64,000 bases of DNA. Source: Escherichia coli O127:H6 str. E2348/69 (lineage in GTDB: Bacteria > Pseudomonadota > Gammaproteobacteria > Enterobacterales > Enterobacteriaceae). The stretch is from NCBI RefSeq assembly GCF_000026545.1, contig NC_011601.1, one strand, 5' to 3'. Below are positions 29,289 through 36,564 of the stretch, piece by piece. Under the pieces are notes generated by a model. It worked only from the letters and a program-made list of their open reading frames with translations. It was not told the DNA's origin and made no database searches. Position numbers and translations under genes: made by a program. Numbering within the stretch: the first letter of the stretch is position 1; every line of letters starts with the position of its first letter.

Positions 29289-30197
29289 ATGGCTGCCATT
29301 AATACGAAAGTCAAAAAAGCCGTTATCCCCGTAGCGGGATTAGGAACCAGGATGTTGCCGGCGACGAAAGCCATCCCGAAAGAGATGCTGCCACTTGTCG
29401 ATAAGCCATTAATTCAATACGTCGTGAATGAATGTATTGCGGCTGGCATTACTGAAATTGTGCTGGTTACTCACTCATCTAAAAACTCTATTGAAAACCA
29501 CTTTGATACCAGTTTTGAACTGGAAGCAATGCTGGAAAAACGTGTAAAACGTCAACTGCTTGATGAAGTGCAGTCTATTTGTCCGCCGCACGTGACTATT
29601 ATGCAAGTTCGTCAGGGGCTGGCGAAAGGCCTGGGACACGCGGTATTGTGTGCTCACCCGGTAGTGGGTGATGAACCTGTGGCTGTTATTTTGCCTGACG
29701 TTATTCTGGATGAATATGAATCCGATTTATCACAGGATAACCTGGCAGAGATGATCCGCCGCTTTGATGAAACGGGTCATAGCCAGATCATGGTTGAACC
29801 GGTTGCTGATGTGACCGCATATGGCGTTGTGGATTGCAAAGGCGTTGAATTAGCGCCGGGTGAAAGCGTACCGATGGTTGGCGTGGTTGAAAAACCAAAA
29901 GCGGATGTTGCGCCGTCTAATCTCGCTATTGTGGGTCGTTACGTACTTAGCGCGGATATTTGGCCGTTGCTGGCAAAAACCCCTCCTGGAGCTGGTGATG
30001 AAATTCAGCTCACTGACGCAATTGATATGCTGATCGAAAAAGAAACGGTTGAAGCCTATCATATGAAAGGGAAGAGCCATGACTGCGGTAATAAATTAGG
30101 TTACATGCAGGCCTTCGTTGAATACGGTATTCGTCATAACACCCTTGGCACGGAATTTAAAGCCTGGCTTGAAGAAGAGATGGGCATTAAGAAGTAA
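29289..30197 (+). CDS. galU: UTP-glucose-1-phosphate uridylyltransferase
   Basis: 302 aa, [26 protein letters not shown] motif. Confidence 0.95.
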
Positions 30198-30291
30198 CAT
30201 CCGTATCGGTGTTTTCCACGAAACGGTGTTGAGCAATCGACGCCGTTTTTTTATAGCTTATTCTTATTATATTGTCTTAAACCGGACAATA

Positions 30292-30318
30292 AAAAATCCC
30301 GCCGATGGCGGGATTTTT
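30292..30318. terminator. Bidirectional terminator between galU and hns
   Basis: AAATCCCGCC-gatg-GCGGGATTT hairpin flanked by A/T runs. Confidence 0.7.
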
Positions 30319-30340
30319 AGCATGTGCAATCTACAAAAGA

Positions 30341-30754
30341 TTATTGCTTGATCAGGAAATCGTCGAGGGATTTACCTTGCTCATCCATTGCTTTTTTGAT
30401 TACAGCTGGAGTACGGCCCTGGCCAGTCCAGGTTTTAGTTTCGCCGTTTTCGTCAACGTAGCTATATTTTGCCGGACGCTGAGCACGCTTAGCTTTGGTG
30501 CCAGATTTAACGGCAGCAAGGCTATTCAGCAGTTCGTTCGGGTCAATACCGTCAGCGATCAGCATTTCGCGATATTGCTGCAGTTTACGAGTGCGCTCTT
30601 CAACTTCAGCAGCAGCCGCGCTTTCTTCTTCGCGACGTTCGTTAACAACAACTTCTAATTTTTCCAGCATTTCTTCCAGCGTTTCAAGTGTACATTCTCT
30701 TGCCTGCGCACGAAGAGTACGGATGTTGTTCAGAATTTTAAGTGCTTCGCTCAT
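30341..30754 (-). CDS. hns: Nucleoid-associated protein H-NS
   Basis: 137 aa, [36 protein letters not shown]. Confidence 0.97.
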
Positions 30755-31357
30755 TGTAGTAATCTCAAACTTATATTGGGGTGGTTTGTTGAGGTAATAA
30801 TAGAGCCTTAAATTCAGTTGTGCAATAGCCAGGAATGTAAGGAATTCAAAATTGTTCTTTATTTTGTGCCGCCAATAATTATCTTTTCATAAAATTAGCC
30901 AGAAAAGACGCGGCATATAGCCCTATTTGCACCGATGATTTCGCAGCACGTGAGGTTAAAACTTCCTGATTCATGTCACATTTTATGGGGAGATAATCGT
31001 AGGCTGACGACCTTTCAGTCTTCTGTATTAGTCGTGTTTACGAGAATTCCCTATTAAGCGAATGATGAAAAGTAGAACAGTCGCAATAAGAGCAGGGACT
31101 TAGTATTGCACTATCTCCTGGAGGTCAACAGAGGGCTATTACATGCGCAACAGGTTAAAGATTGTGAATAGTTACCGGCAGTCATTTACCCGCTTATAAC
31201 AAGCGAGGCAGTTGTAATGATAGCTCAGAAGGATTATGCAAGGCTTCGTAAGGGAGAACGCATATACCACTTCTGTGCATACTATTGAGCTGAAAAACTG
31301 ACGAATTATGATAAACTCCAGCCAACTTTATTTCATATCATTGAGGGCCTGTGGTTG

Positions 31358-31975
31358 ATGGCACAGCTATATTTCTACTATTCCGCAATGAATGCGGGTA
31401 AGTCTACAGCATTGTTGCAATCTTCATACAATTACCAGGAACGCGGCATGCGCACTGTCGTATATACGGCAGAAATTGATGATCGCTTTGGTGCCGGGAA
31501 AGTCAGTTCGCGTATAGGCTTGTCATCGCCTGCAAAATTATTTAACCAAAATTCATCATTATTTGATGAGATTCGTGCGGAACATGAACAGCAGGCAATT
31601 CATTGCGTACTGGTTGATGAATGCCAGTTTTTAACCAGACAACAAGTATATGAATTATCGGAGGTTGTCGATCAACTCGATATACCCGTACTTTGTTATG
31701 GTTTACGTACCGATTTTCGAGGTGAATTATTTATTGGCAGTCAATACTTACTGGCATGGTCCGACAAACTGGTTGAATTAAAAACCATCTGTTTTTGTGG
31801 CCGTAAAGCAAGCATGGTGCTGCGTCTTGATCAAGCAGGCAGACCTTATAACGAAGGTGAGCAGGTGGTTATTGGTGGTAATGAACGCTACGTTTCTGTA
31901 TGCCGTAAACACTATAAAGAGGCGTTAGAAGTCGGCTCATTAACGGCTATTCAGGAAAGGCATCGCCACGATTAA
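31358..31975 (+). CDS. tdk: Thymidine kinase
   Basis: [21 protein letters not shown]-loop N-terminus and C-terminal zinc ribbon. Confidence 0.95.
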
Positions 31976-31986
31976 TAAGAATTTCT

Positions 31987-33287
31987 TTACTGACAGGTTG
32001 AGCAGGGCGCTTTTATCCTGTCAGTTCGTTTTACGCACTTCTTCCGGGCTATACACCCTTCTCGGCAGTTTTTTAACGCCGCTATACGCCTCACAGAGCG
32101 CTGTAACCTGTAAAGTACAATATCGCTGTGTGTAGGCGTTATACATCGTCGCAAATATGATGAAGGACAATGCTGCCGGTTTATGGAAAAGTTCTTTTGG
32201 GAAAACAAAAAACGGCCCCAGAAGGGGTAATGCCAGTCAGTTAAGCAACTGACTGGCTCTTTTTCGGGGCTGTGGGGTATTTCCAGGGCCTCTCCTTTAC
32301 CACTCTCGGGAAGGCCCTTTCCCTTCTTGTCGGTAATTTCACTAGTTGTCCCATACTTGCAAGATCGCGCATCAGCTCCGGTATACGTCCCGGTGAAGCG
32401 CATGGCGTCCGTCATCGATGTCAGCAGATGGCAGACTTTTCCTTTGCGCGTCACGGTCAGCAGGCGGGCTGTCACCTCATTTCCCAGTCCCGGCCACTTT
32501 TTTCGTGCCTGCGGGCTGGTTTTCAGCTTCACCAGATGATCGCCTTTACCCAGTTTTCTGATCTCTTCATATTGCGCTCCCTTTCTGAGAGGGAACATCC
32601 AGTGGCGGTGTTCTCCCGCCAGGCTCCAGGTATTTAACAGTCCTGGTGAGTAATAACCTTTATTCATTAACGTCAGGGTGTTATCGCCGGTTTGTTCTAT
32701 AAGTTGCTCAGCAAGCTCATTTCCGCTGTTCTTCATCGTGCCGAAGGCTGCAGTCGTCAGCAGATGGCTGGTCAGTTCCATCTGGCAGACCATTTTGACC
32801 TGCGGGTAGAGCGCCGGGTTCCCGGCATGTGTCTGGCGGGGGAAGGCTGCATCGTTCTCTGGTGTATCCGGTGTGCGCCAGAACACACCATCGATGGCCA
32901 GCAGGGTCAGGCCGCACCAGTGCGGATGCGGCGTGGCGTTATGCCAGAGCTGCGCTGTTTTCGTGAACACGCGGCGGACAGCCTCAATTCCCAGACGCTA
33001 GCGGGTCTGAATAACGGCACTGGGGCAACGAAGGGGCGATTGCCCGGCAGCATGATGTCCAGGCGATTCACAATCTGGTGAAGAGGTTCTTTACGCTCAA
33101 GCGCCATGCCAACAATACACCAGACCATCATTTCGAGGGGAAGACGGCGCTTGCGTAGCGTTACAGTACCTGATTCGGCAAGGCAACGAGAGATGAGTTC
33201 GGGGTCGAGGTAATCCCCCAGAGAAGTCAGTGGGTTACGCAGAGAATCGTAACGGGATACCAAACCAAGGGCCTGTCCAATGAGCAT
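31987..33287 (-). pseudogene. insZ: IS4-family transposase, disrupted (two ORF fragments; the distal fragment reads through the left inverted repeat into flanking DNA)
   Basis: ORFs 32907-33287 (N-terminal part) and 31987-32970 (DDE-domain part) are in different frames; resembles the insZ pseudogene between tdk and adhE. Confidence 0.6.
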
Positions 33288-33388
33288 AAAAAAATCCGGA
33301 AACGAGTGAGCGTTTCCGGATTCTTACACAGCCACTGGAGCGGTCAACTGATCCTTAACTGACTGGCATTACCCCAGAAGGGGCCGTT
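32211..33388. mobile_element. Degenerate IS4-family insertion sequence remnant with imperfect terminal inverted repeats
   Basis: 35-bp ends AACGGCCCCAGAAGGGGTAATGCCAGTCAGTTAAG (32211-32245) and its near reverse complement (33354-33388), 31/35 match; internal transposase is split. Confidence 0.7.
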
Positions 33389-33412
33389 TATGTTGCCAGA
33401 CAGCGCTACTGA

Positions 33413-36088
33413 TTAAGCGGATTTTTTCGCTTTTTTCTCAGCTTTAGCCGGAGCAGCTTCTTTCTTCGCTGCAGTTTCGCCTTCTACATAATCACGACCG
33501 TAGTAGGTATCCAGCAGAATCTGTTTCAGCTCGGAGATCAGCGGGTAACGCGGGTTAGCGCCGGTGCACTGGTCATCGAATGCATCTTCAGACAGTTTAT
33601 CCACGTTCGCCAGGAAGTCTGCTTCCTGAACGCCAGCTTCACGGATAGATTTCGGAATACCCAGTTCAGCTTTCAGCGTTTCCAGCCATGCCAGCAGTTT
33701 CTCGATCTTAGCTGCAGTACGGTCGCCCGGTGCGCTCAGACCCAGGTGGTCAGCAATTTCAGCATAACGACGGCGAGCCTGCGGACGGTCATACTGGCTG
33801 AATGCAGTCTGCTTGGTCGGGTTGTCATTCGCGTTGTAGCGAATAACGTTACAAATCAGCAGGGCGTTTGCCAGACCGTGCGGAATATGGAACTGGGAAC
33901 CCAGTTTGTGCGCCATTGAGTGACATACACCCAGGAAGGCGTTCGCAAACGCGATACCCGCGATAGTCGCTGCACTGTGAACACGTTCACGCGCTACCGG
34001 ATTTTTAGACCCTTCGTGGTAGGACACTGGCAGATATTCTTTCAGTAGTTTCAGTGCCTGCAGAGCCTGACCATCAGAGAACTCAGATGCCAGTACAGAA
34101 ACATAAGCTTCCATGGCGTGAGTTACTGCGTCCAGACCACCGAAAGCACACAGGGACTTCGGCATGTCCATAACAAGGTTGGCGTCGACAATCGCCATAT
34201 CCGGGGTCAGTGCATAGTCTGCCAGCGGATATTTCTGACCAGTAGTGTCGTCAGTTACAACCGCAAACGGAGTGACTTCAGAACCTGTACCGGAAGTGGT
34301 GGTGACAGCGATCATTTTCGCTTTCACACCCATTTTCGGGAACTTGTAGATACGTTTACGGATATCCATAAAGCGCAGCGCCAGTTCTTCGAAGTGAGTT
34401 TCCGGATGTTCGTACATAACCCACATGATCTTCGCAGCGTCCATCGGGGAACCACCACCCAGCGCGATAATCACGTCTGGTTTGAAGGAGTTTGCCAGTT
34501 CTGCACCTTTACGAACGATGCTCAGGGTCGGGTCAGCTTCTACTTCGAAGAAGACTTCAGTTTCAACGCCTGCTGCTTTCAATACGGAAGTGATCTGATC
34601 AGCATAACCATTGTTGAACAGGAAGCGGTCAGTCACGATGAGCGCACGTTTGTGGCCATCAGTAATCACTTCATCCAGCGCGATTGGCAGGGAGCCACGG
34701 CGGAAGTAGATAGATTTCGGAAGTTTGTGCCACAACATGTTTTCAGCTCGCTTAGCAACGGTTTTCTTGTTGATCAGGTGTTTCGGACCAACGTTTTCAG
34801 AGATGGAGTTACCACCCCAGGAACCACAACCCAGAGTCAGGGAAGGTGCGAGTTTGAAGTTATACAGGTCACCGATACCACCCTGAGAAGCCGGGGTGTT
34901 AATCAGGATACGAGCCGTTTTCATTTTCTGACCGAAGTAAGAAACGCGAGCCGGTTGGTTATCCTGGTCAGTGTACAGGCAAGAGGTATGACCGATACCG
35001 CCCATAGCAACCAGTTTCTCTGCTTTTTCTACCGCGTCTTCGAAATCTTTAGCACGGTACATTGCCAGAGTCGGGGACAGTTTTTCATGTGCGAACGGTT
35101 CGCTTTCATCAACAACGGTCACTTCGCCGATCAGAATCTTGGTGTTTTCTGGTACAGAGAAGCCTGCCAGTTCAGCAATTTTATAGGCTGGCTGACCAAC
35201 GATAGCCGCGTTCAGCGCACCGTTTTTCAGGATAACGTCCTGAACAGCTTTCAGCTCTTTACCCTGCAACAGATAGCCGCCGTGGGTTGCGAAACGTTCA
35301 CGTACTGCGTCATAAACAGAGTCAACAACAACAACAGACTGTTCAGAAGCACAGATTACACCGTTGTCGAAGGTTTTGGACATCAGTACAGATGCAACTG
35401 CACGTTTGATATCAGCAGTTTCATCGATAACAACCGGAGTGTTGCCCGCGCCTACGCCGATAGCTGGTTTACCGGAGCTGTATGCGGCTTTAACCATGCC
35501 CGGACCACCAGTCGCGAGGATCAGGTTGATGTCTGGGTGGTGCATCAGTGCGTTAGACAGTTCAACAGAAGGTTGATCGATCCAGCCGATCAGATCTTTC
35601 GGAGCACCGGCAGCGATAGCAGCCTGTAGAACGATATCAGCCGCTTTGTTGGTTGCATCTTTTGCACGCGGGTGCGGGGAGAAGATAATGGCGTTACGGG
35701 TCTTCAGGCTGATCAGCGATTTGAAGATAGCAGTTGAAGTCGGGTTAGTGGTCGGAACGATACCGCAAATAATACCGATGGGTTCAGCGATAGTGATGGT
35801 ACCAAAAGTGTCGTCTTCAGACAGAACACCACAGGTTTTTTCATCTTTATAGGCGTTGTAGATATATTCAGAAGCAAAGTGGTTTTTGATCACTTTATCT
35901 TCGACGATACCCATGCCGGATTCGGCAACGGCCATTTTCGCGAGTGGGATTCGAGCATCTGCAGCAGCCAGAGCGGCGGCGCGGAAGATTTTGTCTACTT
36001 GCTCTTGAGTGAAACTGGCATATTCACGCTGGGCTTTTTTTACACGCTCTACGAGTGCGTTAAGTTCAGCGACATTAGTAACAGCCAT
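33413..36088 (-). CDS. adhE: Bifunctional acetaldehyde-CoA/alcohol dehydrogenase
   Basis: 891 aa, [35 protein letters not shown]. Confidence 0.97.
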
Positions 36089-36564
36089 AATGCTCTCCTG
36101 ATAATGTTAAACTTTTTTAGTAAATCATCTGCTCGAATACGAGAGTATAGTCAGTGCGGTGATGATTTGCTTAACCGATGGAAATCAAAAGCTTACTCGC
36201 GCTCACACTCACTGTGATTTACTAAAAGAGTTTAAACATTAGAGTTATTATCTCTAATGCGTCACTTCCAGGTGGCGTAAGCAAGATTACTCACTTCTGG
36301 GTACTGATTACGTGATCCAAATCAAATTTTTGCAAAGCTGACACCTTTCAGCATCGCTTTTCGCCATTATAGCTAACAGTTAATAAATTGTAGTATGATT
36401 TGTTGGATACATTATCATGTTTTGCACAACCAGATAACAATAACGAATGATAGCAATTTTAAGTAGTTAGGAGGTGAAAAATGCTGTCAAAAGGCGTATT
36501 GTCAGCGCGTCTTTTCAACCTTATTTATGGCTAACATTATCCGGCTTTTGCTTCGGAGCTAACC

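Follow-up and report, generated by a model that had tools for sequence, protein, structure and literature searches.

A decayed IS4 element in the loop of a terminator-like hairpin downstream of adhE in Escherichia coli E2348/69

The stretch of DNA that we analysed, called the window in the following, comprises 64,000 nucleotides of Escherichia coli O127:H6 str. E2348/69 (contig NC_011601.1). It carries hns (30341-30754, minus strand), tdk (31355-31975, plus strand) and adhE (33413-36088, minus strand), with a transposase relic between the last two, the gene order being hns-tdk-[IS]-adhE. The IS4 relic of E2348/69 is already known and annotated: RefSeq lists it as pseudogene H4J01_RS13840 with the label 'IS4 family transposase; frameshifted; internal stop'. 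This entry agrees with an earlier note on the same DNA, in which the relic was described as IS4-like, decayed and probably situated between tdk and adhE. An Rfam scan of positions 30000 to 36500 at E ≤ 0.1 gave zero matches, and nothing specific on insZ/tdk/adhE or on IS4 and terminators was found in the searchable library of literature.

Two inverted arms of 36 nt (32210-32245 and 33354-33389), separated by 1108 nt, enclose the broken IS4-type transposase gene. They are complementary at 32 of 36 positions (89%), and all four mismatches fall into the AGAA/TTCT centre of a CCCC-N4-GGGG palindrome. Both the bounding repeats and their divergent centre had been described correctly before. However, the repeats had been taken for 35-bp termini of the element, and just 18 bp of each arm belong to it. 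Each arm is composed of an 18-bp IS4 end, a 12-bp target-site duplication and 6 bp of leftover stem. The duplication, CCCCAGAAGGGG, was listed by the repeat finder under family D16; it is a direct repeat of 12 bp without any mismatch, with its left copy at 32216-32227 and its right copy at 33372-33383. Because CCCCAGAAGGGG is a perfect direct repeat, the outermost 18 nt on either side, AAACGGCCCCAGAAGGGG, lie outside the element and are target DNA. Reading outward from each IS end, CCCC-loop-GGGG comes first and is followed by an outer half-stem of the original hairpin, AAACGG (32210-32215) on one side and CCGTTT (33384-33389, 24 nt past the adhE stop codon) on the other. The inverted repeat looks 36 nt long since the target is palindromic and half of the palindrome follows each 18-bp IS4 end. 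Mismatches are restricted to the loop, as the target was duplicated in direct and not in inverted orientation. The true extent of the element is 32228-33371 (1144 bp), instead of the 1.18 kb from 32211 to 33388 assumed in the earlier note.

The site can be seen in its empty form in strains that carry no insertion. In these, AAACGGCCCCAGAAGGGGCCGTTT is uninterrupted and followed by a T-run on the adhE strand. In O157:H7, for example, the locus reads AAAAAAACGGCCCCAGAAGGGGCCGTTTATG, with the half-stem AAACGG contiguous with the rest of the hairpin, and the 12-mer CCCCAGAAGGGG is found once only, as in the other empty-site genomes. On the adhE strand, the empty site folds into a stem of 10 bp without mismatch, closed by a loop of 4 nt, and UUUUUUUGUUU comes directly after it. 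This hairpin starts 24 nt past the adhE stop and has a computed fold of -25.4 kcal/mol (z-score -3.75). A GC-rich stem-loop with a U-run soon after the stop codon is the form of an intrinsic terminator, and the empty-site hairpin accordingly shaped looks like that of adhE. A scan of species-representative genomes with the 22-nt hairpin yielded just three hits, all in metagenome bins; these are unrelated terminators that lack homology to the window. It is the duplication that argues for an event running from the empty to the occupied state.

The element between the two target copies is IS4 itself, more than an IS4-like sequence, with its transposase on the minus strand and an internal deletion. 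Its ends coincide with nt 1 and nt 1426 of K-12 IS4 (the ISfinder archetype; insG, b4278; 1426 bp), with which it has in common the termini, the 12-bp duplication and a transposase of the Nterm_IS4 plus DDE_Tnp_1 type. Comparison with the IS4 reference, which the earlier note had proposed, gave 97–99% identity, namely 99.4% in the first 174 bp and 97.4% in the other 983 bp. The window copy differs from K-12 IS4 by 25 substitutions and two gaps; its lesions comprise a 281-bp deletion, the loss of 1 nt that shifts the frame, and a nonsense codon. The resident K-12 IS4 starts with TAATGCC and ends with GGCATTA. In the window, the 18-bp terminal inverted repeat at the C-terminal end of the transposase gene, TAATGCCAGTCAGTTAAG (32228-32245), is identical to one of the K-12 IS4 ends. 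The repeat at the N-terminal end, CTTAACTGACTGGCATTA (33354-33371), is two bases off (TC to CT), and through this change the window repeats are complementary at 18 of 18 positions, compared with 16 of 18 in K-12 IS4. The ends had been called intact-looking, which is true of these actual termini. Within the 64 kb of the window there are exactly two occurrences of the 18-nt IS4 end motif, whereas 0.02 would be expected by chance. Both element ends, TAATGCCAGTCAGTTAAG included, carry the end signature of the IS4 subgroup, -AATR--------WTW---- (PMC2266710, Table 1). The 12-bp duplication CCCCAGAAGGGG lies within the 10-13 bp of the subgroup. The length of 1144 bp falls below the subgroup range of 1400-1650 bp, since 282 bp have been lost from the 1426-bp reference.

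We examined the remains of the transposase gene for the nature of its lesions. The InsG pseudogene spans 32241-33287 on the minus strand and is recovered by tblastn against InsG in three frame-shifted segments as well as by Pfam. An N-terminal ORF (32907-33287, minus strand) matches Nterm_IS4 (E=1.8e-23), and an ORF in a second frame (31987-32970, minus strand) matches DDE_Tnp_1 (E=9.5e-13), just as a transposase broken into two frames had been reported. The junction of the 281-bp deletion (32390-32401) lies in the retained copy of a direct repeat, CCGG(T/G)GAAGCGC. Its copies at IS4 nt 163-174 and 444-455 (window orientation) flank the deletion and overlap in the alignment, suggesting that the segment may have been lost by slippage or microhomology between short direct repeats. 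The deletion takes out InsG residues ~306-396 and with them YSHRWEIELGYREIK (Y-x2-R-x3-E-x6-K, InsG 313-327), which holds the third catalytic residue; the motif is defined as Y-(2)-R-(3)-E-(6)-K in PMC2266710. There is also a nonsense codon TAG (CAG in IS4) at 32998-33000 on the minus strand, where tblastn shows QARQRLG changed to QTR*RLG. This substitution at IS4 nt 1054 is confined to the window copy among the nine copies aligned. Finally, a G-run at 33022-33025 is shortened by 1 nt (gap at IS4 nt 1076), which splits the frame. The gap is missing from the other deleted alleles, which come from four other strains (L013-L016), and among all copies aligned it is limited to that of the window. 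The window copy has no uninterrupted DDE transposase ORF with a YREK motif and cannot make an active transposase. This reflects the decay of an IS4 member, not non-membership, the ORF of its sister allele in strain SCU-485 being intact. The earlier note had mentioned neither the 12-bp direct repeat nor the 281-bp deletion and the in-frame stop.

The alleles at the tdk-adhE site were counted in 5426 complete genomes, a collection biased towards clinical lineages, with junction queries that each passed an 80%-coverage summary only for the intended allele. The site was empty in 2184 genomes and occupied in 1885 by ISZ, the K-12 element that carries insZ. IS4 of any length was found in the window orientation in 1150 genomes, 112 of them with a full-length copy, which leaves by subtraction ~1038 genomes with the deleted form. 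Another 190 genomes carry a full-length IS4 in the opposite orientation, so that a complete copy is present at the site in ~302 genomes. Altogether, 5409 of the 5426 genomes were accounted for, and ~59% have an IS4-subgroup element in the adhE hairpin. These counts are approximate because they depend on the 80%-coverage summary and on the rule by which the tool joins matched pieces. The final full-length counts stem from queries with 200-bp flanks. First-pass queries with 100-bp flanks had been discarded as overcounts (582 and 379), since they let IS4 copies from A-tract/hairpin sites elsewhere pass the 80% threshold. The numbers 112 and 190 were independently confirmed by chimeric queries consisting of the tdk flank and the IS4 segment missing in the window: depending on the orientation, 112 or 190 genomes with full-length IS4 scored above E2348/69.

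Intact, full-length IS4 copies were located in the same hairpin in LSN03-016011/A, H1827/12, CUVET19-970 and SCU-485, where the duplication measures 11-12 bp and has the loop at its centre. The copy of SCU-485 (L017), an undeleted IS4 with an intact 442-codon ORF, is the undeleted form of the window's lineage. It has 13 derived substitutions in common with the window copy and with L013-L016, and these four deleted copies have the deletion in common with the window copy. This pattern suggests a single old insertion from which 281 bp were lost later on. The series is not a clean one: SCU-485 is separated from one deleted allele by 3 substitutions, whereas the deleted alleles differ among themselves by 9-22. 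This means that the deletion has arisen more than once, at its direct repeats, or that alleles have recombined. The copies of LSN03-016011/A and H1827/12 show 0 substitutions relative to K-12 IS4. Considering also that the former lies in a different flank haplotype and the latter in the opposite orientation, their insertions are recent and separate. Including ISZ, at least four independent insertions have hit the loop of the adhE hairpin.

The best explanation for the relic, to which we assign a probability of roughly 0.93, is that IS4 inserted into the terminator-like hairpin of adhE and then decayed in place. An IS4 copy would have entered the loop of the GC-rich hairpin 24 nt downstream of adhE by cut-and-paste transposition, with staggered cuts 12 bp apart and centred on the loop, thereby duplicating CCCCAGAAGGGG. 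The resident copy would then have lost 281 bp between short direct repeats, and with them the YREK motif along with the third catalytic residue. Afterwards, in the lineage of E2348/69, the gene is likely to have lost 1 nt and acquired its nonsense codon. The dead allele was presumably passed on vertically and became fixed in a large strain group. Among its members are E2348/69, ATCC 25922 and ST131, which belong to phylogroup B2.

An element that sits in a terminator-like hairpin might also affect the genes next to it, and the relic could have been kept for such a host function, its end hairpins replacing the terminator of adhE and tdk or its presence altering their expression. Both ends of the IS contain terminator-like hairpins that face inward. 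On the tdk side, the terminator scan detected an 11-bp stem followed by TCTTTTT on the plus strand (32232-32257, fold z-score -6.5), which lies within the IS end and contains the transposase stop codon. On the adhE side, inverted repeat I4 forms a 15-bp stem with a U-run on the minus strand (33290-33325, -59.4 kcal/mol, z-score -5.66). It is situated directly upstream of the transposase ATG (33287) and ~60 nt inside from the adhE-side target copy, and is probably a barrier to read-through from adhE. A promoter-like site on the minus strand (33320-33347; TTGACC, a 16-nt spacer, AAGAAT, TG), found by a consensus scan only, may serve as the transposase promoter; its -10 hexamer overlaps the 5' arm of this hairpin. 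IS10 and IS50 are protected from outside transcription, and the inward-facing hairpins of IS4 resemble such a protection. After the insertion, the adhE-side target copy retains a 5-bp stem and its U-run is gone. Judging from these structures, transcription from adhE and tdk would now end at the hairpins inside the IS, and these could incidentally stand in for the terminator that was split. A selected role would also fit the stability of the deleted allele in ~1000 genomes and the fact that two different elements, IS4 and ISZ, occupy the site and both last there as dead relics. However, ~40% of the genomes fare well with an empty site, and a dead IS can persist without selection because precise excision is rare. 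Maintenance for the benefit of the host is therefore unlikely in our opinion.

It is less probable still that the deleted element acts as a non-autonomous, MITE-like unit which is moved in trans by full-length IS4, as the earlier note had thought possible. Its two 18-bp ends are intact, as are over 170 bp of subterminal sequence next to either of them, and many E. coli genomes carry active-looking IS4, with up to ~32 matching places per genome. A second place in the E2348/69 record matches part of the query, too. Nevertheless, all deleted copies that we examined reside at tdk-adhE with the same flanks, and none of those inspected was found at another locus with a duplication of its own, as would be expected of a MITE-like element. 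Among the best 30 of the plasmid records (72,556 searched), the only deleted copies were four in a galU-hns-tdk-adhE context, that is, chromosomal fragments labelled as plasmids. Moreover, a preference for action in cis is found among transposases of the IS4 family, for instance those of IS10 and IS50, and that of IS4 may share it by analogy. We consider mobilisation in trans very unlikely for these reasons.

In K-12, the same position is occupied by ISZ with its gene insZ (b4573), which lies in the same hairpin target and in the same orientation as the window IS4. ISZ is a relic of the IS4 subgroup, too, and has also lost its YREK region by an internal deletion. It measures 989 bp between its ends, starting with CAATGCCGTTCACTTAAG and ending with CTTAACTGATCGGCATTG (CAATGCC...GGCATTG). 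Its duplication is 10 bp long (CCCAGAAGGG), in contrast to the 12 bp of the window IS4, and the junctions differ accordingly: GGG|CAATGCC...GGCATTG|CCC in K-12 and GGGG|TAATGCC...GGCATTA|CCCC in the window. DNA similarity between ISZ and IS4 is limited to a single terminal stretch of 34 bp. When ISZ was used as a megablast query, the flanks alone matched in IS4-bearing genomes. The window element thus shows neither homology along ISZ nor its junctions and duplication. On plasmid pO103_CEC12044_2 we found a full-length relative of ISZ (1430 bp, 92% identical), whose duplication, CGCGAAGCGGG, is centred on a small GC hairpin. The transposase of this relative has its own YREK motif and 38% amino-acid identity to InsG. 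The 34-bp similarity and the ~38% identity of the transposases imply that IS4 and ISZ entered the same loop independently. The proposal of the earlier note that the window holds a single element with ~35-bp imperfect terminal repeats, equal to the decayed insZ of K-12, has in its favour the common tdk-adhE position and transposase orientation, the annotation of ISZ/insZ at this place in K-12 and the likeness of the ends (14/18 on one side, the 34-bp stretch on the other), but it is highly improbable and was rejected on the empty site and the ISZ comparison, given that the outer 18 nt are found in genomes without the insertion, that IS4 has entirely different flanks at other sites, that nucleotide similarity to ISZ ceases beyond 34 bp, and that the transposase identity (38% of the relative to InsG) and the duplication (10 bp in K-12, 12 bp here) disagree.

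The adhE hairpin is a recurrent target of IS4. For a survey of IS4 targets, we reconstructed 12 distinct sites, six chromosomal and six on plasmids. Most of them display a duplication of 11-14 bp on the loop of a hairpin with an A-tract, a GC-stem and a T-tract. Ranked against random 36-nt windows of the 64-kb stretch, the fold of the target beats 98.6% of them at 8 of the 12 sites and 96% at 9 of the 12. An A-run on the left combined with a T-run on the right was present at nine sites. At least three sites resemble the one at adhE in lying just past gene ends, namely those downstream of fumA and of bamD and the one separating ygcG from eno. AAA-N5-[12-bp duplication]-N3-TTT is the register common to the adhE site and to that of the resident K-12 IS4. 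Site-selective insertion of IS4 with the consensus AAA-N20-TTT was reportedly described by Mayaux et al. (1984), and the common register agrees with this consensus. The transposase may read the A- and T-runs, the hairpin or both. The preponderance of terminator-like hairpins among the IS4 targets comes from the present 12-site survey and is not a cited result.

Taken jointly, these observations allow the tentative reading, which we hold with clearly less than even confidence, that the terminator-like hairpin of adhE acts as a natural trap for elements of the IS4 subgroup. They suggest that members of the subgroup take terminators of the A-tract/GC-hairpin/T-tract type as a safe landing site, possibly recognising them by structure, and themselves carry in terminators that face inward. 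The inverted arms also seem to have been homogenised after insertion. There are strains in which one of the two duplicated copies has its loop flipped to TTCT, which results in a perfect 36-bp inverted repeat. The 18-bp repeats of the window, which are now perfectly complementary, would be another sign of this process.

A caution follows for the annotation of similar elements. The terminal repeats of an IS that has entered a palindrome seem longer than they are, and a hairpin that was duplicated directly mimics an inverted repeat whose centre is mismatched. The repeated use of the adhE hairpin by two elements of the IS4 subgroup is the only part of our results that goes beyond the existing annotation. 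It is of modest interest for the target choice of the IS4 subgroup and for the question of where adhE transcripts end in different strains.

In two strains, KE48 and SCU-485, the adhE-side copy of the target-site duplication reads CCCCTTCTGGGG and not CCCCAGAAGGGG (L015:3646-3657 in the KE48 locus and L017:3774-3785 in that of SCU-485, corresponding to 33372-33383 in the window), so that the arms around the IS4 copy form a perfect inverted repeat, 36/36. The right 18-bp repeat also departs from K-12 IS4 by a two-base difference (TC to CT), which is present in every allele of the lineage to which the window copy belongs and makes this repeat the exact complement of the left one. The inverted arms thus look as if they had been homogenised, via template switching or gene conversion.

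We could also observe an IS4 copy at the tdk-adhE hairpin site of strain PT62 (L018:2349-3772), which is frameshifted and 98.2% identical to K-12 IS4. In its left junction, GGG|CAATGCC, and in the haplotype of its left flank, it matches the K-12 allele that carries ISZ, a different relic of the IS4 subgroup in the same hairpin, and its substitutions mix both IS4 types. The PT62 allele probably arose by recombination between two chromosomes, one carrying ISZ and the other IS4.

Both hairpin relics have lost the transposase region that holds the YREK motif and the third catalytic residue. The deleted IS4 (junction at 32390-32401) lacks InsG residues ~306-396, and K-12 ISZ (L002:1418-2406) lacks residues ~250-379, as numbered on an ISZ relative. 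These internal deletions are separate events that removed the same functional part, a common loss that, with only two cases, may be coincidental. A minus-strand ORF of 327 codons (31987-32970) extends past the left end of the deleted element into the spacer between tdk and the IS; it is no gene but an artefactual reading frame that the deletion produced.

The locus galU-hns-tdk-adhE is also present on four records filed as plasmids (L013-L016: NZ_CP082081.1, NZ_AP026904.1, NZ_CP141085.1 and CP054248.1). These records are 150-542 kb long, have no relaxase and are labelled 'non-mobilizable'; apparently they are not true plasmids but pieces of a chromosome, or artefacts of assembly.

The exact 22-nt hairpin, ACGGCCCCAGAAGGGGCCGTTT, was found in three unrelated metagenome-assembled proteobacterial genomes (L026:5292-5313; L027:2394-2415 and 2568-2589; L028:1401-1422), none of which displays homology to the window. 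In all three it is terminator-like, with an A-run ahead and a T-run behind, and the contig with two copies (L027) carries them 174 bp apart.

A further hairpin precedes the transposase ATG on the minus strand, together with a promoter-like site (33290-33347). AAGAAT at 33325-33320, the predicted -10 hexamer, overlaps with the hairpin's 5' arm, and a transcript from the predicted promoter would therefore lack most of that arm. Read-through from adhE would fold the complete hairpin before the ATG. Such an arrangement would be a built-in barrier to outside transcription.
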